Of a stretch of 64,000 bases of DNA, positions 7,396-58,176 are shown in pieces (the stretch's first letter is position 1; every line of letters starts with the position of its first letter). The notes beneath the pieces were generated by a model. It ran no database searches. It had not been told where the DNA came from and was given only the letters and a program-made list of their open reading frames with translations. The translations under genes were made by a program, and so were the position numbers. Location of the stretch: the NCBI GenBank assembly GCA_002269645.1, contig NIVC01001747.1, positions 1 to 64,000 of the forward strand, in the 5' to 3' direction. This DNA comes from Macrostomum lignano. Taxonomy: Eukaryota.

Positions 7396-7555
7396 GGGAT
7401 GCCTCTTTAGGTAGAAAAGGGGCATTTAATGAGGCAAAAAGGCAACATGAGCAGCATTAAGCAAGATGACAAGAGCAGCAATAAAGTGAGTACACAAGCG
7501 CTCAGTCATTGCACGCGCAAGTGCACAAATGCGTCAAATTGAAAATTAGTGCAGC

Positions 7556-27005: not shown

Positions 27006-30707
<3,702 letters not shown>

Positions 30708-30807
30708 TTATTTATTTGGTTGCTGGTGGCAGTGTCATCATTGGGCTGGCCGGTAGGGTTCGCCCTCAGCGCCCCGCTCCTAGTTTGGCACGGGGTTAGG
30801 AACGGCA

Positions 30808-31784
<977 letters not shown>

Positions 31785-33297: not shown

Positions 33298-33830
33298 GGT
33301 GACTGTAGGGATGGTGACTGTAGGGATGGTGATTGTAGGGATGGTGACTGTAGGGATCGTGACTGTAGGGATGGTGACTGTAGGGATAGTGACTGTAGGG
33401 ATGGTGACTGTAGGGATGGTGACTGTAGGGATGGTGACTGTAGGGATGGTGACTGTAGGGATGGTGACTGTAGGGATGGTGACTGTAGGGATGGTGACTG
33501 TAGGGATGGTGACTGTAGGGATGGTGACTGTAGGGATGGTGACTGTAGGGATGGTGACTGTAGGGATGGTGACTGTAGGGATGGTGACTGTAGGGATGGT
33601 GACTGTAGGGATGGTGACTGTAGGGATGGTGACTGTAGGGATGGTGACTGTAGGGATGGTGACTGTAGGGATGGTGACTGTAGGGATGGTGACTGTAGGG
33701 ATGGTGACTGTAGGGATGGTGACTGTAGGGATGGTGACTGTAGGGATGGTGACTGTAGGGATGGTGACTGTAGGGATGGTGACTGTAGGGATGCTGACTG
33801 TAGGGATGCTGACTGTAGGGATGGTGACTG
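33298..33830. repeat. 15-bp minisatellite (GGTGACTGTAGGGAT)n
   Basis: About 35 near-perfect copies. Confidence 0.97.
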
Positions 33831-34387
33831 TTTAAAATATGAAACAGAAGGAGCGGCAGTGATAAGAGGCTTCTGTAGAAAAGCAAATGAATTTCAACTA
33901 TTGCAGATGCCAAACGCAGCCCAGCAGACTCTCAACTGCCTGAGCTGAGCACGAGAGGAACAGGCGAAAGCATAGGAGAGTCGGGAGAGAGCCAGAGCCG
34001 AGAGAAAACCTCCCTATTTAACAATGAATTTTCTTGAACAGTTGACCGCCTCCTCAAACCGATGCACTGCGAGACTGAGCAGCATTTTACACCGCTCAGT
34101 AGGCCATTAAATGCATTTAAAGATCTCACACTGCACTGAGGCACAATGGATCAGCTCAGCCTCATCAAGTACAGCTTGGGGTGGCCGCTGCAGCCGCAGC
34201 CCTCTCCGTTGCCATGCTGGGTGCACGGAGGCGAAGGCGGCGGACTCAGCGCTCATGCTCGGGAGAGAAGTTTCAGCTGCTCAGGCCGGGGGTGGTCGGC
34301 CTCGCCAGATGCTGCAAAAGGGAGGGCAGCTGAGAGATGAGGCAGTGAAATCTTTCTGGCAACCGGCTGCACAAACCTTTAAAACAC

Positions 34388-34570: not shown

Positions 34571-34815
34571 CAGGTAAGGTTCATAAAGTCTCTTCGAAAT
34601 TCTTTTACAATAAAATTGTAGAGCCACGAAGCTGCCTTTCTGCCCCCTTCTCTCCTTCCCCTCCCCGCTATATTGTGTCGCTATATTCTGTGGATGCTTG
34701 AGCCTTCGTCGGTCAGTCTCTAAAATTCTAGTGTGCGGGCATGCATTTTCGTTTTTGGGTCAGACAGATACTCGTAGCTGTTCAATCGTTGCCGCATTTT
34801 GCTTCCTCCTCTCTC

Positions 34816-37800: not shown

Positions 37801-40800
37801 CACATTTTAAGATCCCTAAAAAAGCAGAAAACTGCAATCTTGACCTTTGATAATCTTATTTGTCCCCTCTTTCTGCTCGGAGCTGATAAAATGCATCAAT
37901 TTTGATTGCTTGCGCCATAACTTTCTCCTATCTCGCCAGTGCATTTCTCTCCAGTTGGGGGATGGGGCGTTCTAAGTGGCTGCGTGTGTACAATTGGACC
38001 CTGGCTCAGTGGCGCACTGTAAAGATGATTGCGCAATGATTTGGCTACTGTTGAGTTGTTCTGCCTTTCAATATGAAGCCCTGTGTATTGTAGGACAGTG
38101 AAATTCATTGCATAACTTGCGAGTCGCTTTAACAGGCGGTGAGCGTACACTCGATATTTCAATGCTTTAAATCGGAAAGTTGTAAACGTTAACTGCTCAT
38201 CGAGTTCTAAACTTTAAGAGAAGAGACTTATATTGCCGGAAAGAGCTTGCAACACTGAGTTTGGAGGTATAAGTTGTTTGCTTTAAATATGAAAACAAAA
38301 AGGACAGCATTAAAAAACTATTTCCGAACTTTTAACTTTCTGCAAAGATTGCACTTAGTTTCGTGAGACGTAATAGATAAAGTTATGGGGAGGGTTCAAC
38401 TTCTTACTGCCACTGTGTATTGGAGGGTTGAATTAGATTGCGCAATCATTTTGTTAACTTTACCTGAGCCTGATACTGACTGAAAGAGAAATCAATTGCG
38501 CAATAAATTGATTCAATTAATTCAATATTCTTATCGGCGCCTTTCAACCCGCAGCTCTGTGCAGCTCTAACCCTAACCCTAACCACTGATGGCACTGAAC
38601 CCTGAGAGTTGAGTTCTTTTTGACGGAGAAAATTTCGATTGAGTCCAGTTTTACGGAGAGGATTTCGATGGTTTTCAGTTTCACGGAGAGGATTTCTGTT
38701 TCGCGGAGAGGAGTTTGATGGATTTGGAGATGTTTTGATGATGGGATTCGGGTCATGGGATTCAGCTAAGGGGTTTCAGGGAATGGAATTCCGGTGATGG
38801 GAGTTCTTCCCCTTTCTCCTCCATCGGAGGAGTTGGCCTCGTTAATACTAAAACTGGTGCGTTGTTTGTCTGTGTGATACATATCTCCTCCTAGACGACT
38901 TGCAAGTCAGCGTCGAAGCTTATATGGGAAAACTGCAAATTTTCCGAGGATGGCAGTGGGCTATTTCAATTTTTTATTTTTACATTTTAAGATCCCGAAA
39001 AAAGCAAAAAACTGCAATCTTGACCTTTGATAATCTTATTTGTCCCCTCTTTCTGCTTGGAGCTAAAAATTTGCATGAATTTTGAGCGATTGCGCCATAA
39101 CTTTCTCCTATCTCTGCAGTGTATTTTCTCTCCAGTGGGGGTGCTCGCGTTCTCAGTGGCGGCGTGTGTACACTTGGACCTTGGCGCACGGGCTGACTGT
39201 ATAGACAATTGCGCAACGATACGTGCTCTGATTTTCAATTAGGCAGCCCGGTGTATTTTTTGCACACTGAAATTCAATGCATCAACATGCGAGCCTTTTT
39301 AGCAGGCAGGTGAACGTACACTCGATACTTCAATGCCTTAAATCGGGACATTTCAAACGCTAACTGTTGCTCGAGTTCTAAACTTTAAAAGAATAGACTT
39401 ATATTGCTGGAAAGATCTTGCAACACTGAGTTCGGGGATATAAGTTGTTTGTTTTAAATGTGAAAAGAAAAAACACAGCGATCGAAAACAACTTCCATAC
39501 TTTTTACTTTCTGGAAAGATTGTACTCATTTTGGGGTTCAATGGGGTTCGACCAACCCCCAACAGTTGGTGGGAGGGGGGGCGGTTCAACTTTTAATTGC
39601 CACTGCGGAAGGGGGTCAGTCGCTGTGTATTGGAGGGTTGATTTAGATTGCGCAATCATTTCGTGTGCACTTGGACCTTGGCGCACGGGCTGACTGTATA
39701 GACAATTGCAATTCACTGTTGCAGCCAGTGAACGTACACTCGATATTTCAATGCTTAAAATCAGAAAGTTTCAAACACTAACTGTTGCTCGAGTTTTGAA
39801 CTTAGAGAGGAGAGACTTATATTGCTGGAAAGATCTTGCTGCGATGAGTTCGGGGATATAAGTTTTTTGCTTTAAATATGAAAATTAAATTCACAGCATT
39901 CAAGAAAAGATTTTCATACTTTTAGCTTTCTGCAAAGATTTTTCTCATTTTGGAGTTCAATGGGGGTTCGACCGACCCCCCAATAGTTGGTGAGGGGGGG
40001 TTCAATTTCTAGCTGCACTGCGTATTGGAAGGGGGGTCGGTTGCTGTGTATTTGAGGGTTGATTTAGATTGTGCAATCTTTTTGTTAACTTTAACTGAGG
40101 CTGATACTGACTGCCTGAGAAATAAGTTGCGCAATTTAATTGGTTCAATGTTTTTTCGGCGTCTTTCAACACGCAGCTGTGTGTAGCTCTAACCCTAACC
40201 CTAACCTTAACCAATGAATTCTGAGAGCTGGGCTGTTTGACGTAGAAATTTCGATTTAGTCCAGTTTCACGGAGAGGATTTCTATTTCGCGGAGAATATT
40301 TCGATGGTGTTCAGTTTCACGGAGAGGATTTCGATAGTGTTCAGTTTCACGGAGACGATTTCTGTTGCGCGGAGAGGTGTTGGAAAATGGGATTCCGCTG
40401 ATGGAGTTCAGGGAATGGAATTCCGCTGATTGGAGTTCTTCCCCTTTCTTCTCCGAAGGAGGAGTTGGCCTCGTCCTAATACTAAAGTTGGTGCGATGAT
40501 TGTTTGTTTGTTTGTCTGTTTGTTTGTGTGTTGCATAACTCCTCCTAGAATACTTGCAAGTCAGCGTTGAAACTTATATGGGTAAACTGCAAATTTTCCC
40601 GGGACTGCAGTGGGCTATTTCCATTTTTTATTTTCACATTTTAAGATCCCTAAAAAAGCAGAAAACTGATTTCCTAACCTTCTCTGGTCACTTTTTCTGC
40701 TCGGAGCCGAAAATTTGCATGAATTTTGAGCTATTGCGCCACAACTTTCTCCTATCTCTGTAGTGTATTTTCTCTCCAGTGGGGGGATGGTCGCGTTCTC

Positions 40801-41957
40801 AGTGGCGGCGTGTGTACACTTTTACCTTGGCGCACGGGCTGACTGACTGTATAGAAAATTGCGCAACGATATATGTTCTGATTTTCAATAGGCAGCCCTG
40901 TGTATTTATTTGTTGGATAGTGAATTCAATTTGAATAAACTTGCGAGCATCTTTAGCACGCACTGAACGTACACTCGATGGTTCAATGCTTTAAATCGGG
41001 AAATTTCAAACGCTAACTGTTCCTCGAGTTTTTTACTTTGAGAGGAGAGACTTATATTGCTGGAAAGATCTTTCAATGCTGAGTTCGGGAATATAAGTTG
41101 CTTGCTTTAAATCAAAAAAACTGAAAGCACTGCATTCTATAAAAGATTTTCATACTTTTAACTTTCTGCAAAGAGTGTACTCATTTTGGATTGAATGGGG
41201 GTTCGACCGACCCCCCAACAGTTGGGGGGGGGGTGGGTTCAATTTCTAACCGCCACTGCGTATTGCAAGGGGTCAGTCTCTGAGCATTGGAGGGTTGATT
41301 TAGTTTGCGTAATAATTTTAACTGAGACTGATACTGACTGACGGAGAAATGAATTGCGCCATCAATTTGTTTTATTATTTGTGCCAGCAGGCAGTAGTGA
41401 ACGTACACTCGATATTTCAATGCTTTAAAACGGGAACTTTCAAACGCTAAATTTTCTTTGAGTATTAAACTTTGAGAGGAGGGACTTATATTGCTGAAAA
41501 GAGCTTGCAACGCTGAGTTCGGGTATAAAAATTGTTTGCTTTAAAGTAGAAAAAATGAAGGCGGAGCAATGGAAAAAGTTTTTCATACTTTTTACTGTCG
41601 GCAAAGATTTTATTCATTTTAGGGGTTCATGGGGGTTCCGGGGGTTGGTTTCATCTTCTAACTGCCACTGAGTATTGGAGGGGGTCGGTCGCTGTGTATT
41701 GGAGGGTTGATTTACAATAGATTGCGCAATCTTTTTGCTAACTTTATACTGACTGACTGAGAAATCGGTTGCGCAATCAATTGATTCAATTAGTTCAATA
41801 TTTTATTGGCGCCTTTCAACACGCTGCTGTGTGTGGCTCTAACCCTAACCCTAACCAATGAATTCTGAGAGTTGAGTTTAGCTGATGGAGTTCAGGGAAT
41901 GGAATTCCAGTGATGGGAGTTCTTCCCATTTCTTCTCCGAAGGAGGAGTTGGCCTCG
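34816..41957 (+). mobile_element. Head-to-tail array of five non-autonomous Helitron-like units (1192, 1632, 1202, 1632, 1484 bp) with a 2834-bp higher-order repeat
   Basis: Units start T(C)(C/T)TAATACTAAA..TGGTGCG..GTTTG at 34816, 36008, 37640, 38842 and 40474. They end in a hairpin (CTCCTCC-AGA-GGAGGAG at 35982-35998) plus TTGGCCTCG. No TIRs, and no TSD seen. Internal ~420-bp subrepeat and (TAACCC)2-3. The tandem structure is certain; the Helitron assignment is inferred. Confidence 0.65.
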
Positions 41958-42469: not shown

Positions 42470-43545
42470 TGTAGAGTGTTCTACCTTTCGTAAAAAAGAC
42501 ATAAAAGTGTTAACGTACTACTCACACATTTTATTCAGTAGTAAGTTGAAGAGCATGAATAAAGGTATGCTTTGAATTATAAGTATATTCTGACTAACCA
42601 ATAGAAAAAGAGAGACCTTGAGCATGCTAAATTTAGAAATCACCCAATCACGTGTAACCTGTACGTGTCGAACGCAAACCCCAGGAGAGATGCATCATTC
42701 AACCGTACGCACGTGACCCAAGCAAATGTAACTAAAAATAACTCGAATGCGATGACCAATCACGCGCTTTTACACTGAACCAATGGAGTAACTTTCTACC
42801 CTGCCAAGTTTGACAGCAGCCAAACCGTGACCTTTTTGACAGCTGAAGAGTTGGACCCACGTGACCTCATGGGGTCCATTTGCCTATAAATACAAGTGGT
42901 CCGGAACGGACCCGGAGCCACAATCTCCAAGGGAGAGAAGCTCCGAAGAGGAAGCTCTAGTGAAGCCTTCCTGAAGAAACTCGCGTCGTGGACGAGTTCT
43001 TGCGGTAAGCCTTACTCATTTGCGCCCGTTGGTTGAGACGTCTCGCTCAAGTCTATTGAGACTTGAGTTTATTTGAGTCTGTTGAGACTCTTGAGTCTGT
43101 TTAGACTCCACTGGTTGCAGTCTCCAGAAGGACTGCCCCTGATAGGTCTTAGAAGACTATCAGTGGTTTCCGGAGCTATACCTAGAGTGCAGAGAGGCAC
43201 TGCTAGAAGGAGTAGGCTTATATTAAAAACCGCAGTTTGGCGCAGGGATCCCCATTGTTAATTTGGAAGCTTCCGATTGGTCCGAACTACAGATACCGGC
43301 CGGCAAGAAGTCAAGAGGACAAAGGAGATAACGGACCAGATCAACTGTTACCAGGCGCCTAAACTTCCTGAAGGACAGGAAAGTTACTGATCGCGATACT
43401 ACGGACGAGGATTATTACGAGAGCTCTCATTTAAGGACTCAAAGGTAATTGAATACCTTCATTTGATTACTGGGTTGCCTAGCTACAGAGCTAGAAGTGA
43501 TTGTTCCTTGATTACAGTTGAGGACTGGTAATAAGGAACACATCA
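42470..43545 (+). repeat. 5' LTR (1076 bp)
   Basis: TGTAGAGTG...GGAACACATCA. By eye it is identical to the 3' LTR except a G4/G5 run at ~42871/52678. Confidence 0.97.
42595..42915 (+). promoter_or_regulatory. Putative LTR U3 promoter: CCAAT boxes, CACGTG E-boxes, TATA box
   Basis: Four CCAAT motifs (~42598, 42643, 42755, 42779), three CACGTG, TATAAATA at 42885-42892, followed by the hairpin GGTCCG-GAA-CGGACC. Confidence 0.5.
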
Positions 43546-44322
43546 ATTGGTGATCTCGCCCTTTCGGCACTACTCAAACTTTTGAGCAATAGCCCTGATC
43601 AAGCTATTGTTAAGTGGCGAAAGAGTGTCTTCATTAATTTGCGCGCACGTGTTAGAGTTAACATTTTGCAAGTCCGTACGTTTTGAAACTCGAGTAAAAT
43701 TTTGGTGTACAGGTTTGAGCACCTGTCAATTTTGAGTACAGTTTGAGCACGCGTGTTAAATTTTAGTTTTTAACGAGCTCGAGCAAGCGTAAACCTAAAA
43801 CAAAACCGAAAAACAACGTCCGGTACACTGAAAATAAACAAAAATAATAATTAATCAATACACACTAAAACAAAACCGAAATTAACTTCGTCGGTACACT
43901 GAAAACAAACCGAAAATCAAAGAATCGTCGACGCAAACAAACAAAAAATAACTGAAACATTTTGCCGGCACAAAAACTAAAACAAAACCGAAATTAATTG
44001 ACACTTCGTGGAGAGCGGAGTTAATTGACAAAAGAGAGAAAGTCAGGGAAGAGAAAAAAGTCTTTGCAAAGCAAGAAGACAAAGTCCACTTCAAGATACA
44101 CTTTGCGGGACGCCGCATAAGTGCGAAAACGGCAAGCGAACAGAACAAGTTCATTTGAGGACAACCAGTGGCAGCAAGCCGCAACTTCGAGGCCAGCGAA
44201 TAACAGATCGACACTACAAGGCAATTCGTTACAGTCGAGGTTATTCCGAGGCAAACACCACACTGGACGATCCGTTACAAATCGATCCAGATCTTGAACT
44301 ACCGTTCTATCCTATCAACAAC

Positions 44323-46113
44323 ATGGCGCGGCGCAATCCAACGGTACACAGAGACATCAAAGAAACGGTCGGTACTTTCTCGATGGAGAAAGATTTTAAC
44401 ACATTTGTCGACCATTTTGACCTGGTATGTAGGGAGTACAACCTACAAAATCCAGAGAAGGCACAGCTGCTGCCACCTCTTCTCCAAGGTACTGCGCGAG
44501 AAATTTACGGCAAGCTGGATGCGGCAACACAGCAAAATTATCCAGCACTAATCATTCAACTGCGCGCGCATTTCAACCGTTGCGGCACAAACAGATCAGT
44601 GCTGCTGCACAAATTACATAACAGAAGGATGCAGGCAACAGAATCCTTCCTCGCCTTTGTGGACGATATCCGCCAGATAATTAAGGCACTACATCAGCCA
44701 CCGCTGCAAGCTGCAGATCAACCGCCACTGGGAGCGGCAGAATTGGCCGCCAGAGAGAGACAGAGATTGATGGATCGCGAACAAAACCTAATCTTGCACG
44801 TAATAAACAACGCACAGCCGTCACTTCGGGATAGACTTTTGCGTGAAAACATCGAAACCGAAGAAGACCTTTTGCGGTGCGGAATGCAATGGGAAGCCAG
44901 TGCCCCATTAATGACGACAGGCAACAATGAAGTGCAGAAACTGACGCAGCAATTAAACAAATTAATGCAGCACCAGACAGCTGCTATCGCCGAACAAAAA
45001 AGACGAAATGAACAAGCCTCAGCCAGATGTTACTACTGCGGACAAGAAGGACATTATCAGATTAATTGTCCTCATTGGTCAACAAGGTACGACAAGCCGC
45101 GACAGATATTCAACAATCAAAAGCCGCAGAAACCATGGCAGCAATATCAAAATCGCCAACAACAAGGCATAAGACGCTTCGGAAATGATAGACGCTTCGG
45201 AAATAATGACCGCTCCGGAAATAATGGCCGCTTCGGAAACGACGGTCGCTTCAGAAATAATGGCTACAGGCCACGCAACGTCAGGTACACACAAAGACAG
45301 CCGACGCAAGCAATGCCACGATACGCGAATGCCATCACGTACACACCGGAAAATGAACAGCAAGAACAGCAAGTGTTCACAATTGACGACTTGGAAATGG
45401 ACTTCACAGTCCCGGAAGTTGACATCAGCTTGATCGAAAAGAAGACGACGCACGAGGACAACACTGACAACACAGAAGAGGCGAATGAAACCGAAATGAT
45501 CGAATTAAAAGAGACCACCGGAGACAGCAGAGAAAACAGGAAGAAAGTAAATCAACAGAAAAGGGAGGAGGCGGAGAGCGATACCGGCAACGAAGAAAAG
45601 ATGAAGACCGGCAGAGAAAACAACTATGAATCGACAACAGTGGATGACGACAAAACAAGCACGAAAGACAAAGAAGAAGGAATGCAGGAAGAACTGAAAG
45701 CGGAGAATCTAAGCTCCGACAACAATCAAGGCTACAAAATACAATGGAAAGATGAAGAAATGGGAAAAGAACAGATGAAAGAAAAGCCGAGTTCCGACAG
45801 CGACGAATGCTACGAGATCCGATACAAACGAAATGGTGAAGCCTATATTCAAACGGTCGACTACAAGACAGAGAAAAGATACCAAACGCAATGGAGTGAA
45901 ACAACGGAAACATCGGAAGAAGCCGCAGATGAAGATACTGAAATAACCAAAAAGCAAAGCGAATCAGAAGCCTTCCGCCGGAAACGCCAATGGAACAAGA
46001 GGAAGAATACGATGCGGACGCAGAAGATAACGAATGGCAGCCGCAGCCAATGCCAGCAAAGACAACGGCAACGTTCAGAAAATGGCGATTCTGGATATTC
46101 TGGATCATCATAA
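44323..46113 (+). CDS. gag: Gag: capsid-like domain, coiled coil, CCHC zinc knuckle, RFGN repeats, long acidic linker
   Basis: FSMEKDFNTFVDHFDLVC...LLQGTAREIY capsid-like motif and CYYCGQEGHYQINC (CX2CX4HX4C). Likely ATG at 44323; the frame is open from 44155. Confidence 0.9.
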   Translation: MARRNPTVHRDIKETVGTFSMEKDFNTFVDHFDLVCREYNLQNPEKAQLLPPLLQGTAREIYGKLDAATQQNYPALIIQLRAHFNRCGTNRSVLLHKLHNRRMQATESFLAFVDDIRQIIKALHQPPLQAADQPPLGAAELAARERQRLMDREQNLILHVINNAQPSLRDRLLRENIETEEDLLRCGMQWEASAPLMTTGNNEVQKLTQQLNKLMQHQTAAIAEQKRRNEQASARCYYCGQEGHYQINCPHWSTRYDKPRQIFNNQKPQKPWQQYQNRQQQGIRRFGNDRRFGNNDRSGNNGRFGNDGRFRNNGYRPRNVRYTQRQPTQAMPRYANAITYTPENEQQEQQVFTIDDLEMDFTVPEVDISLIEKKTTHEDNTDNTEEANETEMIELKETTGDSRENRKKVNQQKREEAESDTGNEEKMKTGRENNYESTTVDDDKTSTKDKEEGMQEELKAENLSSDNNQGYKIQWKDEEMGKEQMKEKPSSDSDECYEIRYKRNGEAYIQTVDYKTEKRYQTQWSETTETSEEAADEDTEITKKQSESEAFRRKRQWNKRKNTMRTQKITNGSRSQCQQRQRQRSENGDSGYSGSS

Positions 46114-49100
46114 TACTACTGACGGCAGTAGTCACCAAAGCAACAGCAATGGAGAAACCAATGATATGTCCAACGGATGCGCATATCCAACCGATGATCT
46201 ACAAGATACCAACCGACATCAAATGCAGCTACTTCAAGACAAATCAGACGAAGCCAAAGAAGATCACAATTGATCTCTACAAAGCTAACATCAAGAAGCA
46301 TCGACAACTTGGAATCGTGTGCTTCAGAGACAAGCACCTAGTCGAAAAAATATGGCGAGGACAATGGAACAGAATCCGATTCCGACAGCATGAGCTACAT
46401 GTGTCGCACGCTGACTGCCTACGATGGAACCAGACATTGTTCTCCAAAGATGGTGTACTAGAACCTGATGAAAAGGTCGGCAACGCACAACTCTTCCGAA
46501 CAAAGAATGTGGCAAACGGTCGATATGTCCACTATAATGAAAGATGGCCTGACTACACGGCACGCAACAGCTACCTAATCAGGAATATTCCGTTCTACTA
46601 CAATCCGTACGAGAAAATGGAATCACTGCAACTGCAACTAAGTGAATGCCGATACAGCGAAGGATGGTGCCCAACGCCGATATTGCGAAATGCAGAACTC
46701 TACAGCCTACCGCTGAGTCCAACGTATCATCCAGACTATCGATGGCAGATAGTGCACAGAGCCGATCCACACTACGAAGAGCCATCAAAGTCACGACAAT
46801 ATTTCTTCGCTTGGAAGGTTGAGACGGAAATCGACTGTCAACTACAAAAGTACCACACAGTGGAAGGAGGCCTACTGTCAAACACGTTTTTGGCAAAGTC
46901 AGGAGACTTGGCACTGACGTTTCAAAAGAAACCAGTCGAGCAAAAACTGAAATGCAAGGATACAGACAAGACACTATTCATCTCGGAACAAGAGATACCA
47001 GTCTACGTAAAAGAAGACGACAAACAAACCTTTCTGGCGATCATCAACGGAACGTATCAACAGCAGGAACAACAGAACAGACGACGACGAGACATCGAAC
47101 GTCCCAAACTGGTGTCAAACCGACTACTGTCAGCAAAGATAACGGCTTTGGATCATAATCTACACAACCAGTTAAACCACTTGCATCGAACACTGGTCCA
47201 GCTAACTTGCAAAATGCACGCAATCAACTTAAATTATGCCAGACAAAACTACTATGTCAACCCTACGATGACTTTTCGTAAAATCACCGGAATGACGAAC
47301 GTTTTGGCAGTTCCAATATACGAGCATCTGTTGATATACAAGTGCACGCCGATACAGCACTTTAACATCTTGCCGTCGAACACGTCAACAACCTGCTATG
47401 ACAAGCCAAGGATTGAAGCGTTCTACGAAGGAAAACGAATTCAAGGATTCTTGGACACGGTACACAACATCATCGTTGGCACCGCAATACCGAGACCTTG
47501 CACCACGGCAGCAAACTACTATCAACTGGACAATGCACTGCACGTCATCAAAACAACTGGAACGACAGCAAACATCACAGAACCGGAAGTAATCGTCGAC
47601 GAAAACTACGACATGGAGGATTTGAAGATCCGATTCAACAGAACGAAGTATACGCCATTCGCCGATATCCAACTTGACGAGATAACACCAGGATGGACGA
47701 TCAACGACTTCTTGCAAGCGTTCATCACCCAACGCACGATGATTCACCAGCTGTTCACAAGAAAGGACAAAGGAACCGGGACAGGAAGATTTCCCGTCCT
47801 TGTTTCAATGGACAGCGCCATCAAATCATTTTGGACAAACAGCTTCTGGGAGCTGCTCAATGGAAGAGGCAGTCTCTATCAAGGATTCATCTTCTACGGT
47901 GCTTGCATTGTGTGGATTGTCACGGCAATCTTCGTCATTTCGTCGATCGTACGGTGCTTCAGTCAAACTTGTCCAAGAGCTAAGAAGACAGTGAATGCCA
48001 TAATGCAAAGAACGACAACGGAAGGCGACAACAGTTTAGAACTAACAGAAACTGCACATCGTGAGGTTCAAGGGCAACCGACACTAGCAACGCGGCTATA
48101 TCCATCGATTCCGACAACACCAACGGCACCAAGAATACAACCACCCAACTATCAAGCAGAACAGCAAGACCCAAAATGGCCAGAGAACTACGTATGTACT
48201 CTACACGCCGAAATTGACAAAGCAATGGCTCAAGTTATAATCAACAATCTACCATGTCGAGCGCTACTGGACTCCGGCAGCTCCATTACAGTTATATCAA
48301 AACAACTGTGCAACAAGCTACGACTTGCTCTACGGCCAGCAACAATCGCAGTTGCAGGAGCAGGAGGACATTCGCTAAACATTCTGGGAAAAGCCGACAT
48401 TGACTTAAGAATCGCTAATAAACAGTTGACAGTTCCAACGTACGTCATCGACAGACTCCCAAACCAGGACGTTATTGTTGGCATCGACACGTTCAAGCAG
48501 CTTAGACTACCATTGACCTTCGACTTCAATAAGCAAACGTTTAAGATCGACTCGGTAGAACAACCATTGATCAACCAGATCCGAGTACTACCAAAAGTAA
48601 CATTGCAACAAGATGTCATCATCCAACCGGAGAGCGCCTGCTGGATAAAGGCAAAGGCAACTAACGCAACGGAGGAAGCAATGATATTCGACCCAAACAG
48701 AAGAGTCACGGCTAAACACCAAATTATGATGCCTACGGCACTAGTGCTGGTGGCAAAAGATAAGCAGCTGCCAGTACAAATCTTTAACCCAAACGCGGAA
48801 ATGGTTCATCTACGACAAGGAATGTGCATCGGTCATCTTAATACTCAAGCATCAGTTATGCTGATTGAGCACGCGACTCCACGACTAACAGAAGAAGAAT
48901 TTCAAAAGAAAATCAACTTGGACGACAGCCCGATCACGGAACAACAAAAGAAGAAAGTTCGACAACTGTTGTGGAAGTACAACGAAGCCTTCTGCCATCA
49001 TGATTACGACATCGGACGCGCTAAAGACATTAAACAAGAAATCAAGCTTCTACCACACACGGAACCAATTCAGTGCAAGCCGTACCCGATTGCCAAGCAT

Positions 49101-51734
49101 CTGCAACAACACTTTGACGAAATTATCGATAAAATGCTAAAACACGGCATCATCAGCAAAGCCATTTCAGCATACTCATCACCATGTCTCTTGGTACAAA
49201 AGAAGGAGACTAACGAAAGACGACTCGTATGTGACTTCAGACTGCTGAACAAGTACATACCGACGGATCAGCAAAGCCTACCGAAGATCTCCGAACTACT
49301 AGCAAAGCTCAACACGGCAAAATTGTTCACAGTGTTCGACCTACGTCATGGATTTTGGCAAATTGAAATCGAGAAAGAGTCACGACAGTACACGGCTTTC
49401 AAAACCTACAATGGACAAGTATACGAGTACAATCGATCGCCGATGGGACTCAGCAACAGCCCAGCAACGATGAGCCGACTAACAGCATACATGCTTGCAG
49501 GATGCACGAACCTGTTGCACTATGTTGACGACATCTTAGCCTACGGAGAAGACTTCGAACGACTCTATGAAGCGACGGAGAATGCCCTCGCGCTTATCCA
49601 ACGACAAGGACTTAAGCTACAACCAACTAAATGCAAATTCTTCCGAGACAACGTGCGTTACCTGGGACATCAGGTGACAGCCAAAGGAATTTCACCGGAC
49701 CCAGACAACGTGGATAAAGTGAAAAAGTTTCCTACGCCAACTAGCAAAACGAAGGTCCAATCATTTCTTGGACTTGCGCAATACTTCCGAAAGTTCTTAC
49801 CCAACTTCGCGAAGACAGCAAAGCCGCTGTACGACCTGCTCAAGTTCGACAAATGGAAGCAGGAGAATTGGACACAAAAGCAACAAGAAAGTTTTGACGA
49901 AATCAAACGACAGCTGACATCAGACGCACTGCTACAGCATCCGGACTTCGACAAACCCTTCATCATCGAGACAGACGCCTCAGGAACGGGACTCGGAGCA
50001 GTCCTACTACAGGAAACTGAAGACAAAAAGGAACGACCTATAGCCTACGTCAGTCGAGCACTTAAACCGAATGAGACAAAATGGTCAGCTACGGAACGAG
50101 AACTACTAGGAGTTCTGTTCGCCCTACGACAGTTTCACTACTACATCTATGGATCTCCATTACAGACGATAGTACGCACAGATCACGCACCGCTGACCTA
50201 CGTCGTAACTACAAAAGGACAAACAAACAACCGACTCATCAGGATGACACTCAAGATCCAGGACTACAACTACAAACTCGTCTACAAACCAGGAATTACT
50301 AACAAGGCTGCGGACGCTCTGTCAAGAACCTACGAAGTCAACGCCATTCATCCAATTCCTAACATCAAGGAGTTGATGGATGAAACCGAGAACGACTACT
50401 TCTACCAAGCAATTAAAAACAACGACAAGGACATCAAGCTCAGCCCCGTGGAACGAAAATTCCTGCGCAAGCAGCGACAACATTTAACAATCAACAAGTC
50501 ACGACTCTACTGGATGAGTGACAACAAACCTAAAATCTACATGCCATATTCGTTTAGGCAGGCAATTCTCAACGAACTACACGACAATCCACTCGCTGGA
50601 CACCTGTCGGCAGCCAAAACCATTGCAAGAGTGGAGCAATACTACTTTTGGCCAAGCATGTACGGCGACATCAAGCAGTATTGCAACAACTGCCACTCAT
50701 GCGCAGCATCAAAGACGGGACGACGACAGAAGCCACAGCTACAGTCCATTCCGAAGTCAACAACTATGGACTGTCTCAGCATCGACATCACCGGACCACT
50801 ACCACCGAGCTGTCTCCAGGGCATCGCCTACACCTACATCCTAACCGCCTTGGATATTTTCTCGAAGTTTGCTATCGCTATACCGATCCCGGACATCACA
50901 GCTCAAACGGTGGCAATGTGTTTCTTCAACGACATTATTTGCAAGTACGGCTCACCGAAGAATCTCACGTCGGACAATGGATCACAATTTGTATCTCAAC
51001 TGTTTCAGCAAGTTGTGAAGATACTCAACATCACGCAGATCTACACGTCGACCTACAATCCGAAAGCAAACATGGTTGAACGGTTTCATCGTAATCTGCA
51101 TGAGATGATCACGCACTTCGCGCATCAACAGCCGGAAGACTGGATCATCTACCTACAATCCGTAACAATGGCCTACAACAGCGCTATTCATAGATCGACG
51201 GACAATACGCCATTCTTTCTAATGTTTGGACGAGACTTCCAACCACCAAACCTATTGGCACAGCAACTACTACCATCGCAATATGTGGAAGTCCCGACGT
51301 CCATTCAAAAGTTCGTCACGCAACTACACCTCGCATGGAAAGTAGCCAAGCACAACATCGACAATCAGGTGGCTCTAACCACCGGCACCGACACGAGATC
51401 GACAACTCTGACAGCCGGCGACATCGTCTACCTGCACTATCCGCCGCAACAAACGCACAAACACGCACAGAAATACAAAGGACCATATCGAGTGGTCCAA
51501 CTAACGTCACTGACAACGGCACGCCTGGCCAATGTGCAAGATCCTCATCAGCACCAATTCTACGTGCACATTCATCGACTAAAGAAGATCAACACTGACA
51601 CGACAACGTTTTTACCGTCACTAGACAACGCTGATCGCACGCGTTCGGCGAACCGCCACATCGCAACAAAACACGAGGAGACACAAACATCAACCGAGAA
51701 ACAGCAACACGGCTACAATCTGCGACCTCGTTAA
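45990..51734 (+). CDS. 1914-aa Env-Pol polyprotein: signal peptide, glycoprotein ectodomain, TM, late-domain tail, protease, RT, RNase H, integrase
   Basis: Signal peptide FWIFWIIIILLTAVVTKATA (~46089-46148). Furin site RRRR/D (47079-47090). TM FIFYGACIVWIVTAIFVISSIV (47886-47951). PR LLDSGS (48270). RT YVDD (49521). RNase H ETDASG..ELLG..TDH..ADALSR. IN H-H-C-C plus D(IDITG)-D(SDNG)-E(VERF). No stops. Confidence 0.95.
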   Translation: MEQEEEYDADAEDNEWQPQPMPAKTTATFRKWRFWIFWIIIILLTAVVTKATAMEKPMICPTDAHIQPMIYKIPTDIKCSYFKTNQTKPKKITIDLYKANIKKHRQLGIVCFRDKHLVEKIWRGQWNRIRFRQHELHVSHADCLRWNQTLFSKDGVLEPDEKVGNAQLFRTKNVANGRYVHYNERWPDYTARNSYLIRNIPFYYNPYEKMESLQLQLSECRYSEGWCPTPILRNAELYSLPLSPTYHPDYRWQIVHRADPHYEEPSKSRQYFFAWKVETEIDCQLQKYHTVEGGLLSNTFLAKSGDLALTFQKKPVEQKLKCKDTDKTLFISEQEIPVYVKEDDKQTFLAIINGTYQQQEQQNRRRRDIERPKLVSNRLLSAKITALDHNLHNQLNHLHRTLVQLTCKMHAINLNYARQNYYVNPTMTFRKITGMTNVLAVPIYEHLLIYKCTPIQHFNILPSNTSTTCYDKPRIEAFYEGKRIQGFLDTVHNIIVGTAIPRPCTTAANYYQLDNALHVIKTTGTTANITEPEVIVDENYDMEDLKIRFNRTKYTPFADIQLDEITPGWTINDFLQAFITQRTMIHQLFTRKDKGTGTGRFPVLVSMDSAIKSFWTNSFWELLNGRGSLYQGFIFYGACIVWIVTAIFVISSIVRCFSQTCPRAKKTVNAIMQRTTTEGDNSLELTETAHREVQGQPTLATRLYPSIPTTPTAPRIQPPNYQAEQQDPKWPENYVCTLHAEIDKAMAQVIINNLPCRALLDSGSSITVISKQLCNKLRLALRPATIAVAGAGGHSLNILGKADIDLRIANKQLTVPTYVIDRLPNQDVIVGIDTFKQLRLPLTFDFNKQTFKIDSVEQPLINQIRVLPKVTLQQDVIIQPESACWIKAKATNATEEAMIFDPNRRVTAKHQIMMPTALVLVAKDKQLPVQIFNPNAEMVHLRQGMCIGHLNTQASVMLIEHATPRLTEEEFQKKINLDDSPITEQQKKKVRQLLWKYNEAFCHHDYDIGRAKDIKQEIKLLPHTEPIQCKPYPIAKHLQQHFDEIIDKMLKHGIISKAISAYSSPCLLVQKKETNERRLVCDFRLLNKYIPTDQQSLPKISELLAKLNTAKLFTVFDLRHGFWQIEIEKESRQYTAFKTYNGQVYEYNRSPMGLSNSPATMSRLTAYMLAGCTNLLHYVDDILAYGEDFERLYEATENALALIQRQGLKLQPTKCKFFRDNVRYLGHQVTAKGISPDPDNVDKVKKFPTPTSKTKVQSFLGLAQYFRKFLPNFAKTAKPLYDLLKFDKWKQENWTQKQQESFDEIKRQLTSDALLQHPDFDKPFIIETDASGTGLGAVLLQETEDKKERPIAYVSRALKPNETKWSATERELLGVLFALRQFHYYIYGSPLQTIVRTDHAPLTYVVTTKGQTNNRLIRMTLKIQDYNYKLVYKPGITNKAADALSRTYEVNAIHPIPNIKELMDETENDYFYQAIKNNDKDIKLSPVERKFLRKQRQHLTINKSRLYWMSDNKPKIYMPYSFRQAILNELHDNPLAGHLSAAKTIARVEQYYFWPSMYGDIKQYCNNCHSCAASKTGRRQKPQLQSIPKSTTMDCLSIDITGPLPPSCLQGIAYTYILTALDIFSKFAIAIPIPDITAQTVAMCFFNDIICKYGSPKNLTSDNGSQFVSQLFQQVVKILNITQIYTSTYNPKANMVERFHRNLHEMITHFAHQQPEDWIIYLQSVTMAYNSAIHRSTDNTPFFLMFGRDFQPPNLLAQQLLPSQYVEVPTSIQKFVTQLHLAWKVAKHNIDNQVALTTGTDTRSTTLTAGDIVYLHYPPQQTHKHAQKYKGPYRVVQLTSLTTARLANVQDPHQHQFYVHIHRLKKINTDTTTFLPSLDNADRTRSANRHIATKHEETQTSTEKQQHGYNLRPR

Positions 51735-51845
51735 GTTGCGAAAACAACCCGTGTAGAGACCGGGTCAGAATAGCTCTACAGCTTCGCAAGCTTGTCGTAA
51801 GAGGCGACTAATCTGAGCGACTTCAAACTTCAAGCGACGACGACA

Positions 51846-52058
51846 ATGGGCAACGCACTGTCCAAACAGGCGCCCCAACTACAGCAACTCTACGAATGCC
51901 CAATATGTTTAACTGATGACTTGGCTGTCAAGCCACCAATTATTTGTGAAAACAGACATCGCATATGCGGACAATATTTAAGCGACTCACATTATATTCA
52001 GCTCTGGCAGAATTGCCCGATAGGTAGAAGTAGCTTTCGGCAGTGCGCCTATTGTTAG
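51846..52058 (+). CDS. Small accessory ORF (70 aa): MGNALS myristoylation motif + RING-like zinc finger
   Basis: Strong Kozak context acaATGG. CPIC-x13-CENRHRIC-GQY...CPIGR resembles a Siah/TRAF-type C3HC4 RING, with ligands 6 and 8 replaced by Tyr (TAT) and Gly (GGT), each one base from TGT. Confidence 0.6.
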   Translation: MGNALSKQAPQLQQLYECPICLTDDLAVKPPIICENRHRICGQYLSDSHYIQLWQNCPIGRSSFRQCAYC

Positions 52059-52276
52059 TCTTGGCGCACATGTCAATACTGTAACCAAAAACATTTTATT
52101 TGCATGCGTATACTTACCTTTAAATAACTTTTATAACCAACGCTCTTAACTACCCATTACTAAATACCTGTAACACTTGTGACAAATGATTATTATAAAG
52201 ACATGCTTGAACTTTTTATGCGTTTCAATCCTCTATTTAAAACTCGGGACGAGTTTTTTGTAAACATGGGAGATTT

Positions 52277-53353
52277 TGTAGAGTGTTCTACCTTTCGTAA
52301 AAAAGACATAAAAGTGTTAACGTACTACTCACACATTTTATTCAGTAGTAAGTTGAAGAGCATGAATAAAGGTATGCTTTGAATTATAAGTATATTCTGA
52401 CTAACCAATAGAAAAAGAGAGACCTTGAGCATGCTAAATTTAGAAATCACCCAATCACGTGTAACCTGTACGTGTCGAACGCAAACCCCAGGAGAGATGC
52501 ATCATTCAACCGTACGCACGTGACCCAAGCAAATGTAACTAAAAATAACTCGAATGCGATGACCAATCACGCGCTTTTACACTGAACCAATGGAGTAACT
52601 TTCTACCCTGCCAAGTTTGACAGCAGCCAAACCGTGACCTTTTTGACAGCTGAAGAGTTGGACCCACGTGACCTCATGGGGGTCCATTTGCCTATAAATA
52701 CAAGTGGTCCGGAACGGACCCGGAGCCACAATCTCCAAGGGAGAGAAGCTCCGAAGAGGAAGCTCTAGTGAAGCCTTCCTGAAGAAACTCGCGTCGTGGA
52801 CGAGTTCTTGCGGTAAGCCTTACTCATTTGCGCCCGTTGGTTGAGACGTCTCGCTCAAGTCTATTGAGACTTGAGTTTATTTGAGTCTGTTGAGACTCTT
52901 GAGTCTGTTTAGACTCCACTGGTTGCAGTCTCCAGAAGGACTGCCCCTGATAGGTCTTAGAAGACTATCAGTGGTTTCCGGAGCTATACCTAGAGTGCAG
53001 AGAGGCACTGCTAGAAGGAGTAGGCTTATATTAAAAACCGCAGTTTGGCGCAGGGATCCCCATTGTTAATTTGGAAGCTTCCGATTGGTCCGAACTACAG
53101 ATACCGGCCGGCAAGAAGTCAAGAGGACAAAGGAGATAACGGACCAGATCAACTGTTACCAGGCGCCTAAACTTCCTGAAGGACAGGAAAGTTACTGATC
53201 GCGATACTACGGACGAGGATTATTACGAGAGCTCTCATTTAAGGACTCAAAGGTAATTGAATACCTTCATTTGATTACTGGGTTGCCTAGCTACAGAGCT
53301 AGAAGTGATTGTTCCTTGATTACAGTTGAGGACTGGTAATAAGGAACACATCA
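52277..53353 (+). repeat. 3' LTR (1077 bp)
   Basis: Matches the 5' LTR and is preceded by a short purine run GGGAGA (PPT-like). Confidence 0.97.
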
Positions 53354-53395
53354 ACTGGACTGCCAACGTAGCGACCTGGGTTCGAATCTTAGTAG
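53354..53395 (+). other. Degenerate tRNA/SINE-like remnant split by the LTR insertion (other part at ~42446-42469)
   Basis: The reconstituted site GATAGCCTATATACGAACAGACTGGACTGCCAACGTAGCGACCTGGGTTCGAATCTTAG has a B-box/T-arm (CTGGG-TTCGAAT-CTTAG). Confidence 0.4.
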
Positions 53396-53449
53396 TGAAA
53401 AATATTTTTTTTATTAAAACACCTTAAATACACGAAACTGCTAAACATA

Positions 53450-55940
53450 AAAAAGCACAATGTCAAACATAAAAGAGGCACCATGTCAAACATTACATGG
53501 GCACCATGTAAAACATATACGTGACTCTTTGTCAAACATTAAAGAGCCACCACGTCGAACATTAAAGAGCCACCATGTCGAACATTAAAGAGCCGCCATT
53601 TCGAACATAAAAGAGCCACCATTTCGAACATTAAAGAGCCACCATTTTAAACATTAAAGAGCCACCATGTCAAACATTTAGGAGCCACCATGTCAAACAT
53701 TTAAGAGCCACCATGTCGAAAATAAAGAGCCACCATTTCGAACATTAAAGAGCCACCATTTCGAACATTAAAGAGCTACCATTTTGAACATTAAAGAGCC
53801 ACCATTTTAAACATTAAAGAGCCACCATGTCAAACATTTAGGAGCCACCATGTCAAACATTAAAGAGCCACTTTGTCGAACATTAAAGAGCCACCATTTC
53901 GAACATTAAAGAGCCACCATTTCGAACATTAAAGAGCTACCATTTTGAACATTAAAGAGCCACTATTTTGAACATAAAAAGAGCCACCATTTCGAACATA
54001 AAAGAGCCACCATGTCAAACATAAAAAAGCCACCATGTCTAACATTAAAGAGCCACCATGTCAAACATTAAAGAGCCACCATGTCGAACATTAAAGAGCC
54101 TTTATGTCTAACATTAAAGAGCCACCATGTCAAACCTAAAAGAGCCACCATGTCAAACATAAATCTGGCATGATGTCAAACATTAAAGTGCTACCATATC
54201 GAACATTAAAGAGCCACCATGTCTAAAAGTAAAGAGCCACCATGTCGAACATTAAAGGGCCACCATGTAGAACATTAAAGAGCCGTACCATGTCAGACAT
54301 TAAAAAGCCACCGTATCAAACATAAAAGAGTTACCATGTAGAACAAAAAAGAGCCACCATGTAAAACATTTAGGAGCCACCATGTCAAACGTATATGTGA
54401 CTTTATGACAAACATTAAAAAGCCACAATTTAAAACATTAAAGAGCCACTATGTCGAACATTAAAGAGCCACCATGTCTAACATAAAAGAGCTATACCAT
54501 GAAGAAAATTAAAGAGCCACCATGTCTAAAAGTAAAGAGCCACCATGTCGAACATTAAAGAGCCACCATTTCGAACATTAAAGAGCCACCATGTCAAAGA
54601 TTTAAGAGCCTCTATGTCAAACATTCAAAAGCCGCATTGTCAAACATTAAAGAGCCATTATGTCGTACATTAAAGAGCCACCATTTCGAATATTAAAGAG
54701 CCACCATGTCGAACATAAAAGAGCCACTATTTTGAACATAAAAAGAGCCACCATTTCGAACATAAAAGAGCCACCATGTCAAAAATAAAAGAACCACCAT
54801 GTCAAACATAAAAGAGCTAACATGTCAAACATAAAGAGCCACCATGTCAAACATTTAAGAACCACCATGTCAAACATATATGTGACTTTGTGTCAAACAT
54901 TAAAGAGCCACCATTTCGAACATTAAAGAGCCACCATTTCGAACATTAAAGAGCCACCATGTCAAACATGAAAGAGCTATAACATGAAGAATATTAAAGA
55001 GCCACCATGTCGAACGTAAAAGAGCCGCCATGTAAAATATTAAAGAGCTACCATGTTAAACATAAAAGAGCCACCATGTAAAACATTAAAGAGCAACCAT
55101 GTGAAACATTAAAGAGCCACCATGTTAAACATTTAAGAGCCTTCGTGTCAAACCTAGAAGAGCCACCATGTCGAACATAACAGAGCTACCATGTCAAACA
55201 TTAAAGAGCCACCATGTCAAACATTCAAAAGCCACATTGTCAAACATTAAAGAGCCATTATGTCGTACATCAAAGAGCCACCATGTCGAACATTAAAGAG
55301 CCACCATGTCGAACATAAAAGAGCCACTATTTTGAACATTAAAGAGCCACCATTTCGAACATTAAAGAGCCATCATGTCAAGCATGAAAGAGCTATAACA
55401 TGAAGAATATTAAAGAGCCACCATTTCGAACATAAAAGAGCCGCCATGTAAAATATTAAAGAGCATCATGTGAAACATTAAAGAGCCACCATGTTAAACA
55501 TTTAAAAGCCTTCGTGTCAAACAGTAAAGAGCCACCATGTCGAACATTAAAGCGCCACCATGTCGAACGTTAAAGAGCCACCATGTCAAACATTAAAGAG
55601 CCACATTGTCAAACAGTAAAGAGCCACCATGTCGAACATTAAAGAGCCACCATGTCGAACGTTAAAGAGCCACCATGTCGAACATTAACGAGCCACGATG
55701 TCAAACATAAAAGAGCTACCAAGTTAGACATAGAAGAGCCACCATGTGAAACATATATGTGACTCCATGTCAAAAATTAAAGAGCCACCGTTTCTAACAT
55801 TAAGGAGCCACCATGACAAACATAAAACTGGCACAAACATAAATTGTCAAACATTAAAGAGCCACCATGTAGAACATTAAAGAGTCACCATGCCAAACAT
55901 TAAAAAGCCACCAATTAAAACATAAAATAGCCACCATTTC
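53450..55940. repeat. 23-bp satellite (GAACATTAAAGAGCCACCATGTC)n
   Basis: About 100 diverged tandem copies over 2.5 kb. Confidence 0.96.
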
Positions 55941-56049
55941 AAACACAAGAGAGACATTTTCAAACGTAATAAGAAGCGTCATGCCAATCATAAAGGAGCC
56001 CTTAGAAAGCTAAAAGGAAATGTTGCACCATATTCTTTTTGTCTGGTGG

Positions 56050-56340
56050 ATGCTTGCTATTTAAGGATAGATACTTGCTATCTGGGGGTTCTTTCTATCT
56101 GGGGGTGCTTGCTATCTGGGGGTGCTTGCTATCTGGGGGTGCTTGCTATCTGGGGGTGCTTGCTATCTGGGGGTGCTTGCTATCTGGGGGTGCTTGCTAT
56201 CTGGGGGTGCTTGCTATCTGGGGGTGCTTGCTATCTGGGGGTGCTTGCTATCTGGGGGTGCTTGCTATCTGGGGGTGCTTGCTATCTGGGGGTGCTTGCT
56301 ATCTGGGGGTGCTTGCTATCTGGGGGTGCTTGCTATCTGG
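56050..56340. repeat. 17-bp minisatellite (GCTTGCTATCTGGGGGT)n
   Basis: About 16 copies. Confidence 0.96.
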
Positions 56341-56896
56341 GAGGAGGGGGGATGTTTGCTGTCTTGGGATGTTTTCTTTTTGCATTGCGCTTCATTTGAG
56401 CAGTTTTTCTGTTGTCTTTGTGAAGACTCTATTTGGCGGGTTTTTTTACTTGTAGAGAACAGAAGTTCTATCCAGATGTCCCCCATCGGGGGGCGAAGAT
56501 TGCTAGTAATTTTACTATTAATAAATTATTTTGGTATTTTAAAGGTGCGACCTAAGACAGCTATTTTTAGAACTCTGGAGTTCATATCCTAGCCACGGAA
56601 AAAATGTGTAAGAGGCGTGAATGTTTTCGCTGTTGTGTGGTTGTTATAGGGTTGGAGGTATTCATCTGCAAATAATCGCGATGTACACTGATTGATGTAC
56701 ATTGCAAATATATAAATCGTTGCGCATGGCTTTAGCCACCTCGTGTGTATTTTGGTCTCGCTTAACTCTCGCCTTCTCTCAGTTTACAAATTCAATATTT
56801 GAAATTACTTTTGTCATATTTCTACTTCAAAGGGTTTAATTTTTATAGAGCACACCTACTAGATTTAGTAGTATAGTTGTAGTAAAGACGTTGAGA

Positions 56897-57500
56897 ATTG
56901 GACAGAATTACCTTCACTTTGCTCCCAACCAGGACAGAATTACCTTCACTTTGCTCCCAACCAGGACAGAATTACCTTCACTTTGCTCCCAACCAGGACA
57001 GAATTACCTTCACTTTGCTCCCAACCAGGAGAGAATTACCTTCACTTTGCTCCCAACCAGGACAGAATTACCTTCACTTTGCTCCCAACCAGGACAGAAT
57101 TACCTTCACTTTGCTCCCAACTAGGACAGAATTACCTTCACTTTGCTCCCAACTAGGACAGAATTACCTTCACTTTGCTCCCAACTAGGACAGAATTACC
57201 TTCACTTTGCTCCCAACTAGGACAGAATTACCTTCACTTTGCTCCCAACTAGGACAGAATTACCTTCACTTTGCTCCCAACTAGGACAGAATTACCTTCA
57301 CTTTGCTCCCAACTAGGACAGAATTACCTTCACTTTGCTCCCAACTAGGACAGAATTACCTTCACTTTGCTCCCAACTAGGACAGAATTACCTTCACTTT
57401 GCTCCCAACCAGGACAGAATTACCTTCACTTTGCTCCCAACCAGGACAGAATTACCTTCACTTTGCTCCCAACCAGGACAGAATTACCTTCACTTTGCTC
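56897..57500. repeat. 32-bp minisatellite (GGACAGAATTACCTTCACTTTGCTCCCAACC/TA)n
   Basis: About 19 contiguous copies, with no spacers. Confidence 0.97.
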
Positions 57501-58176
57501 TCGGTCTCAACTACAGAGCTGTGCAGGACAGGACAATGATTACCTACACCTATACCTACAAATTCACTCGTGCTTTCAATGAGAATCATGAGGCATTAAC
57601 TCAGCATTTTTAGTCAGACACACAGAGTAGGCTTTGGAACCGCTACATAATATCTTCATTTAACAGACTCAGCAACTTTTCTCCCTGCGTCCCATCTTTT
57701 CCCTATGTAACGATGTTGATATTTATCTTTGAAGAAAATAATTTAGTATTAATAATTTCTCTTTAGTATTATATTATTTTATCTACTACGAGTATTTATT
57801 AACACATCCTAAAGTTATTTAATATTTACGCTTAAAATTTGTGTTACTGTATCCTTCATAGAAATACGAGTATTGCATTATTTAAAAGACGGTTCGTGCG
57901 TGCTTTTGGTCTCTCTGGTCTCGTGCGTGCTTTTGGTTGGTCCGCCGCGTGGTTCCTGTTAGCCATAACTTACGACCAATAATTTAACGGCAATAGTTTA
58001 AATCCTGTCTGTTCAAATTAATATTTCAATTAAATACAATCAGTCAAAGTTCAAATATAAGACTCTCTTGCTACGAAGACTCAATTTATTATTGATAGTG
58101 TATAGCCCTCAGCACCAAACAAAGAAGGGTCGCGTCACACCTATCCCTCTTTCTCCCTCCGTCCCATCTTTTTCCC

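Follow-up and report, generated by a model that had tools for sequence, protein, structure and literature searches.

Candidate ESCRT-recruiting motifs on the predicted Env tail of a gB-type Gag-Env-Pol retrotransposon of Macrostomum lignano

The LTR retrotransposon that spans positions 42470-53353 of the window (the whole stretch of 64,000 nucleotides of Macrostomum lignano DNA analysed here) carries three motifs of the ESCRT-recruiting classes within 19 residues, and these probably are working late domains, placed on the cytosolic tail of a gB-like Env and serving ESCRT-driven release. The kind of element has already been published, and ESCRT motifs on its Env tail are unreported in the literature searched. 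Where such motifs are under selection, they constitute a sequence-level sign that elements of this kind make and release membrane-wrapped particles, and they point to named host partners that can be tested in the worm by RNAi.

An Env-bearing Ty3/gypsy element

The element presents paired TG...CA LTRs, a target-site duplication and a primer-binding site (PBS), and Pfam matches give the PR-RT-RH-IN order and a CCHC-containing Gag, as in Ty3/gypsy elements; its nearest Pol matches have gypsy-type Pfam sets. By these features it is a Ty3/gypsy (Metaviridae-type) retrotransposon carrying a gB-like Env between gag and pol, the env placement of the GAG-ENV-POL gB-type group. The insertion is recent, since the two LTRs differ by one 1-base indel only and are flanked by a 4-bp duplication. 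Its features, all on the forward strand, are:

42470-43545 (+), 5' LTR, TG...CA, 1076 bp, matching the 3' LTR except for one 1-base indel; target-site duplication ACTG
43548-43559 (+), primer-binding site TGGTGATCTCGC, reverse complement of the PBS given for Mlig_errantivirus_2 in the supplement of PMC13524379
44029-46113 (+), gag frame, first Met at 44323, CCHC knuckle at about 45028-45075, long acidic linker
46080-46148 (+), internal signal or first Env membrane segment, from hydropathy; cleavage presumably after the segment
46149-47882 (+), gB-like (class III) Env ectodomain, furin-type RRRR site at 47079-47090
47883-47939 (+), Env membrane anchor, best 19-residue hydropathy window 2.42
47943-48191 (+), predicted cytosolic Env tail or pre-protease spacer, residues 668-750, lysines at 681, 682 and 745
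48096-48110 (+), LYPSI, ALIX-type YPx(L/I) motif; Y, P and I fixed in 19/19 haplotypes, first residue L or M
48120-48131 (+), PTAP, TSG101-type motif; fixed in 19/19 haplotypes, silent changes in 2/4 codons
48141-48152 (+), PPNY, NEDD4-family PPxY motif; P, P and Y fixed with silent changes, x being N, T, I or G
48210-51734 (+), pol; protease by Pfam, with Asp777 at 48270-48272
About 49197-49676, 49869-50267 and 50544-51062 (+), RT, RNase H and integrase by Pfam, in Ty3/gypsy order
52277-53353 (+), 3' LTR, 1077 bp, paired with the 5' LTR

Two membrane segments are predicted from the hydropathy of the second frame, one around residues 47-69 and one around 648-666, and the sequence between them is assigned to a class III gB-like ectodomain by profile and Foldseek comparisons. 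The direct match to Pfam Monjiviricetes_fusion has an E-value of 5.7e-5, below the cut-off, and a profile built from 50 Env relatives matches herpes gB with an E-value of 1e-20. A monomer model of the ectodomain (pLDDT 78) gives a Foldseek match to gB with an E-value of 1e-18, at a whole-chain TM-score of only about 0.26. In three other host families (L041, L044 and L049), the gB-like ectodomain is interrupted midway, near the furin-type site, by a long mucin-like insert rich in Thr and Pro, which is absent from the family of the window element.

The preliminary description had placed the motifs on an Env-Pol tail, and a separate Env-Pol protein is not borne out. The window copy has a frameshift within the overlap 45942-46113 that splits gag from env-pol, whereas the search of the host genome returned 144 matches, including several near-identical copies in open frames of 2,480-2,538 codons; the copies fetched in full run from Gag through Env to Pol stop-free. 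Since these copies hold one uninterrupted frame, the precursor is a single Gag-Env-Pol chain of about 2,500 residues. A CCHC knuckle is also found in the same protein in 49 of 149 distant Env matches, among the best 150 of 400. Contigs from 4 of the 24 listed sequencing runs cover the element and show no env-skipping joint, although contigs of this kind cannot exclude splicing.

GAG-ENV-POL errantiviruses with an HSV/gB-type Env have been described in Nematoda, Bryozoa and Platyhelminthes by Chary and Hayashi (PMC13524379, from the available parts of the paper), including one M. lignano family, Platyhelminthes_Rhabditophora_Mlig_errantivirus_2, with 16 copies. The window element resembles this class in its gene order, gB-type Env, Ty3/gypsy pol order and multiple young copies, and the shared 12-base PBS and host species (named match P0003) suggest that it probably belongs to the same family, although the LTRs in that listing are of about 864 bp as compared with 1076 bp here. 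The best named match is a Macrostomum lignano polyprotein, at 96%. The terms ESCRT, PTAP, late domain, motif, budding, tail and cytoplasmic are absent from the main text, and the supplementary Env alignments comprise ectodomain parts only, with Schmidtea as the flatworm rows shown. The same source describes the transmission of such elements as elusive outside Drosophila, and cites Sacco et al. 2022 for nematode gag-env-pol elements. No report of late domains in Metaviridae-type Env tails was found among the titles and opening abstract lines of the openly accessible papers searched, and Sacco et al. 2022 could mention them; PMC11952523 and PMC12801592 contain nothing on ESCRT, late domain or budding.

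Three motif classes within 19 residues

Positions 48096-48152 (57 bases) translate to LYPSIPTTPTAPRIQPPNY, residues 719-737 of the 1930-codon frame 45942-51734, and this translation confirms that three late-domain motif types share 19 residues, as first noted in the preliminary description. The position proposed there, between the Env transmembrane segment and the protease, agrees with hydropathy for the anchor and with Pfam for the protease: about 50 residues separate the cluster from the strong hydrophobic stretch before it (best window 648-666), and 40 residues separate it from Asp777 of the protease after it. From the topology expected of two membrane segments, all three motifs are predicted to be on the cytosolic Env tail. 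PT/SAP, PPxY and YPx(1-3)[LI] are each matched once only in the 1930-codon frame, always inside the cluster. Shuffling the 83-residue tail 200,000 times brings the three classes together at a frequency of 5e-6, a figure that ignores the number of tails a genome scan would cover, and the weight therefore rests on the conservation tests.

The TSG101-type motif is an exact and conserved PTAP, on the side of the membrane that hydropathy suggests to be cytosolic, and the NEDD4-type motif is an exact PPxY with a free wildcard position. The ALIX-type motif is LYPSI, which has a terminal Ile and is thus not the canonical LYPxL with a terminal Leu; it satisfies the wider YPx[L/I] rule, and also matches the YxxPhi endocytosis signal. 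This wider rule has reportedly been extended to AIP1/Alix, as the title of a paper of 2003 by Vincent has it. In fungi, the ALIX homologue PalA accepts Ile at the last position (YPx[L/I] in Aspergillus PacC; available part of PMC3346829), and PacC is similar to LYPSI in this terminal Ile while differing from it in function, which is cellular pH signalling and not budding.

In retroviral Gag, these classes recruit TSG101, ALIX and NEDD4-family ligases, and they occur in combination and independently of position, with examples in HIV-1 p6 (PTAP, YPXnL), MLV (PSAP, LYPAL, PPPY) and HERV-K HML-2 (PMC8402826, from the part available). The window element shares with retroviral late domains the three classes and the location just ahead of the protease, as in p6. 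Conversely, the retroviral motifs reside in Gag, whereas those of the window element come after the anchor of a class III fusogen, with an ALIX-type motif ending in Ile. Bluetongue virus NS3 and hepatitis E virus ORF3 likewise are membrane-bound viral proteins with ESCRT motifs on their cytosolic portion, in place of motifs on the capsid; these are accessory proteins of non-enveloped or quasi-enveloped viruses, are not fusogens and lie outside any Gag-Pol precursor.

Conservation within the family of the window element was analysed in 36 copies (L001-L036), 30 of which are 95-100% and 6 of which are 83-88% identical over the query. All three motifs are kept in 36/36 copies, which collapse to 19 distinct haplotypes. 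Among these haplotypes, 10/10 motif-defining residues are invariant while 32/73 other tail positions vary (Fisher p 0.006, the haplotypes being related), and half of the codons for the motif-defining residues (5/10) have undergone silent change. Variation is greatest at the PPxY wildcard, with four residues and seven codons, between P, P and Y that remain unchanged. The comparison of motifs with flanking residues that the preliminary description had proposed thus comes out in favour of the motifs, whose residues, to judge by this pattern, are under selection.

A further reading is that the motifs are chance matches in a proline-rich linker, or residues kept for another reason such as SH3 binding or the protease cleavage site; in its favour, the residues immediately ahead of the protease are likewise invariant across the haplotypes. 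We regard this explanation as very improbable. Env tails are indeed rich in proline (8.7%, compared with 4.5-7.2% elsewhere), and isolated matches do occur in other places, with a PTAP inside Pol of one env-less host family and a YPAL inside Gag of the window element. The comparisons among more distant tails, given below, bear on the same point. The YPAL of Gag was set aside as a late-domain candidate, given that Gag regions have no enrichment.

Other families of the host genome

One copy each of families A-E of the host genome was compared, with tails 16-34% identical and RT domains, where measured, 37-81% identical. PT/SAP is present in 4/5 of these tails, with 0.11 expected, and [LIMV]YPx[LI] in 4/5, with 0.04 expected; PPxY is present in 1/5, with 0.26 expected, and within the host a tail PPxY is confined to the family of the window element. 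Family B contains PTAP in 5/6 copies followed by IYP[KR]I in 6/6, the reverse of the order in the window element, and its one exception reads PNAP in an otherwise intact 2,502-codon frame. Family C has PSAP in frame at the same place in 8/8 copies, two frameshifted copies being unreadable, family D has PSAP together with LYPTL in 3/3 copies, and family E has LYPKI in 2/2 copies, without PT/SAP. In family F, PSAP is found in 2 copies and the stretch is missing from 2 stop-broken ones. The sister families have one or two motif classes in the tail, and the cluster of three in a row is particular to the family of the window element. The persistence of the motifs through changes in order and spacing between families argues against chance matches.

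The preliminary description had also held that the late domains are carried on the Env tail rather than on Gag. This stands for the family of the window element, but it is not general, because families B, C, D and F have PPxY or PSAP on their Gag side. The Gag-side signal is weak, with PPxY in 2/5 host families (p 0.04). An open reading frame after pol in L063 has two PTAP matches and was rejected as low-complexity repeat sequence.

Gag-side motifs are of relevance to an alternative in which the late domains function within a spacer comparable to p6, either severed from Env by the protease or riding with the Pol precursor, so that their location on Env is incidental. The motifs lie 13-32 residues before the inferred start of the protease, and most motifs of the distant set described below, drawn from the best 150 of 400 matches, fall no more than 60 residues ahead of the protease or the protein end; HIV p6 is itself located just before PR. 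In retroviruses, however, ESCRT acts before or during maturation, and at such a time the tail would still be on Env. Moreover, env-less host elements have a motif in 0/20 pre-protease stretches, the same place, and beyond the weak Gag-side signal in the host there is no motif excess in 44 NC-to-signal linkers or 47 Gag N-terminal parts of the distant set (best 150 of 400). Taken with these observations, the spacer alternative appears very improbable.

Distant Env relatives

A profile search over 1.84 billion cluster representatives gave 400 matches, of which the best 150 were analysed; 149 of them were new. Of the new matches, 91 gave a tail, 27 were without a clear anchor and 31 ended short of the anchor. 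Two host-family duplicates, 4 mis-called anchors and 4 tails under 40 residues were removed, leaving 81 tails. Against composition shuffles of these tails from the best 150 of 400 matches, PT/SAP was found in 10/81 (0.76 expected), PPxY in 12/81 (1.73 expected) and [LIMV]YPx[LI] in 9/81 (0.50 expected), with the narrower [LIMV]YPxL in 7/81. Any motif was present in 24/81 of the tails from this best 150 of 400, as opposed to 2.9 expected and a maximum of 9 among 1000 shuffles. The excess is also seen in a strict retroelement subset of the same best 150 of 400, restricted to tails whose protein also contains a protease or CCHC and leaving out the two nearest the host clade: 16/54 tails have a motif, with 2.1 expected. 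Block shuffles give 3.6-5.2. Although the search profile had included the tail, 22 of the 24 motif-bearing matches (best 150 of 400) pass the score cut on the ectodomain alone.

Near-miss motifs were counted in the same distant tails, within the best 150 of 400 matches. P[^TS]AP (1, with 4.2 expected) and PPx[FWH] (3, with 4.0 expected) are not enriched, whereas P[TS][^A]P is mildly so (16, with 9.4 expected; p 0.02), which indicates that some general Pro/Thr patterning exists. Each true motif outranks its letter permutations in these best 150 of 400, with some overlapping permutations near. Among env-less controls, taken from Pol matches, 1/50 pre-protease stretches has a motif with 1.5 expected; 50 of 118 had sufficient upstream sequence, and some are Pol-only frames or fused gene models. 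Env-less elements, Gag regions and near-miss patterns thus mostly lack the enrichment of the distant Env tails. The counts in the best 150 of 400 are not accounted for by shuffling, whether of composition or of blocks, by letter permutations or by near-miss motifs, and an origin by chance appears, at the level of sequence statistics, to be largely refuted already.

The motifs are unevenly spread. By number of classes, 57 of the 81 distant tails have none, 17 have one, 7 have two and none has three (best 150 of 400). One clade of 38 rows, in which the members with a name are nematode proteins, has a motif in 5/38 tails (1.3 expected), as compared with 19/43 elsewhere, again among the best 150 of 400. 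With 57/81 tails motif-free, including 33/38 in this large clade, the architecture apparently can dispense with the motifs. On a quick 86-row tree the motif label changes 17 times, with at least 12 changes forced by well-supported branches, suggesting that the motif state has been gained or lost many times. This patchy spread offers a natural comparison between lineages with and without the motifs.

The absence of motifs from most relatives (57/81 tails of the best 150 of 400) would also be in line with a different use of the same host factors, in which the motifs recruit ESCRT and NEDD4-family ligases for Env cargo traffic, by ubiquitination and multivesicular-body sorting, and not for scission of a Gag-containing particle. 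The purpose would then be the loading of extracellular vesicles or the clearing of fusogen from the cell surface. The tail of a membrane protein is the usual site of sorting signals, YPSI, YPKI and YPTL all match YxxPhi, and the glycoprotein of a free RNA virus (P0270, see below) ends in PPPY. Conversely, generic sorting signals are not enriched in the distant tails of the best 150 of 400 matches, neither dileucine signals nor YxxPhi without Pro (38, with 34.3 expected), while exact YPx(L/I) is; PT/SAP and YPxL are, moreover, adaptor-type motifs of viral structural proteins (PMC8402826, from the part available). We consider a role in sorting instead of scission, the main alternative, rather unlikely. 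The motifs alone cannot separate budding from sorting, and the two readings overlap, because budding into an endosome is sorting from the cell's side; sorting of the precursor into vesicles would itself amount to budding, because Gag and Pol share that precursor.

Several single matches deserve description. P0128 has PTAP and PPxY overlapping in its tail (PTAPPTY, residues 241-247), which resembles the overlapping late domains of Ebola VP40. P0126, a match without a clear anchor, ends in PSAP. P0270, an Env homologue that serves as glycoprotein in Beihai rhabdo-like virus 3 (Nyamiviridae), has PPPY at its C-terminus, and tail motifs may hence also occur in free mononegaviruses. P0164, from Caenorhabditis angaria, is a Gag-Env protein of 1,102 residues, encoded on a contig of chromosome scale, that stops shortly past a PTAP with no Pol in frame, which suggests that some lineages hold Pol in another frame. 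Finally, a Trp-Pro pair (window positions 48177-48191), about 30 residues ahead of the catalytic Asp, is invariant in eight aligned host sequences, and is found within the last 45 residues of 12/48 distant tails (best 150 of 400); it may mark the N-terminal cut of the protease.

Candidate host ESCRT partners

The host possesses both TSG101 and ALIX with largely conserved pockets, in agreement with the partners named in the preliminary description. In host ALIX, more than one exon encodes the V domain, and the Phe corresponding to human F676, which we take to be a residue of the binding pocket, is retained. The TSG101 UEV domain is encoded in one exon and keeps 9/12 peptide-contact residues (contact list from the available part of PMC7650771), with Tyr63 changed to His, Arg64 to Lys and Phe142 to Val relative to the human protein. 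HECT genes are present, among which a NEDD4-family partner is putative. The host also has an Hrs gene. A search for a PSAP exon in the roughly 10 kb preceding its helical domain came up empty, the single PTAP match there falling in a frame of 20 codons, and for this reason Hrs cannot serve to verify internally that the UEV pocket is in use in the host.

Co-folding of the host UEV with the tail peptide scored 0.46 as against 0.00 for the best control, a value in the range up to 0.60 in which only 5 solved pairs stand against all 4 passing mismatches and passes are more often wrong than right; the co-fold mark is reached by 51/78 solved and 2/108 mismatched pairs. Contact agreement between runs was at least 53% and peptide pLDDT at least 44. 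The score may be recall, as UEV-PTAP structures have already been solved.

A proposed model for release driven by the Env tail

If the three motifs are late domains, release could proceed as follows. The precursor would cross the membrane twice, leaving Gag on one arm and the tail with Pol on the other, both on the cytosolic side that becomes the bud interior. The internal signal segment would tether Gag at the membrane, and Env trimers would concentrate the tails where Gag assembles. PTAP would bind TSG101 (ESCRT-I), LYPSI would bind ALIX, and PPxY would bind a NEDD4-family ligase able to ubiquitinate nearby lysines, after which ESCRT-III/VPS4 would sever the neck. The protease would then free itself near residue 750, with the motifs staying on Env. 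A scission signal in this position would couple release to Env incorporation, and the budding site could be the cell surface or endosomes.

A broader proposal, which we advance tentatively and rate a little short of even, is that gB-fusogen gag-env-pol retrotransposons are true budding viruses assembled from one membrane-spanning polyprotein, several lineages of which would have gained or kept tail late domains, with scission driven by Env and not by the capsid. Late-domain biology would in that case gain an arrangement in which one Gag-Env-Pol chain carries its scission signals on the tail of the fusogen.

Other features of the window

The window contains several further features of a different nature. 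At 24031-26960 (+), a frame of ankyrin repeats precedes one that matches a Mab-21 C-terminal domain (E 1.8e-7); together they may represent a gene for a cGAS-like receptor with ankyrin repeats. At 16697-20789 (+), an 896-codon frame with confirmed ankyrin repeats overlaps one of 477 codons that encodes several hydrophobic segments; on visual inspection the two resemble a TRPA-like channel in two frames, with no Pfam match for the channel part. Fragmented frames similar to non-LTR retrotransposons occupy 27006-31784 (-), being RT-like by eye and with a weak RNase H match (E 7.8e-5). Many minisatellite arrays with periods of 8-32 bp are found at 1-7500, 33162-33900 and 53388-57635, and a unit of roughly 2.8 kb is duplicated within 34700-41600.
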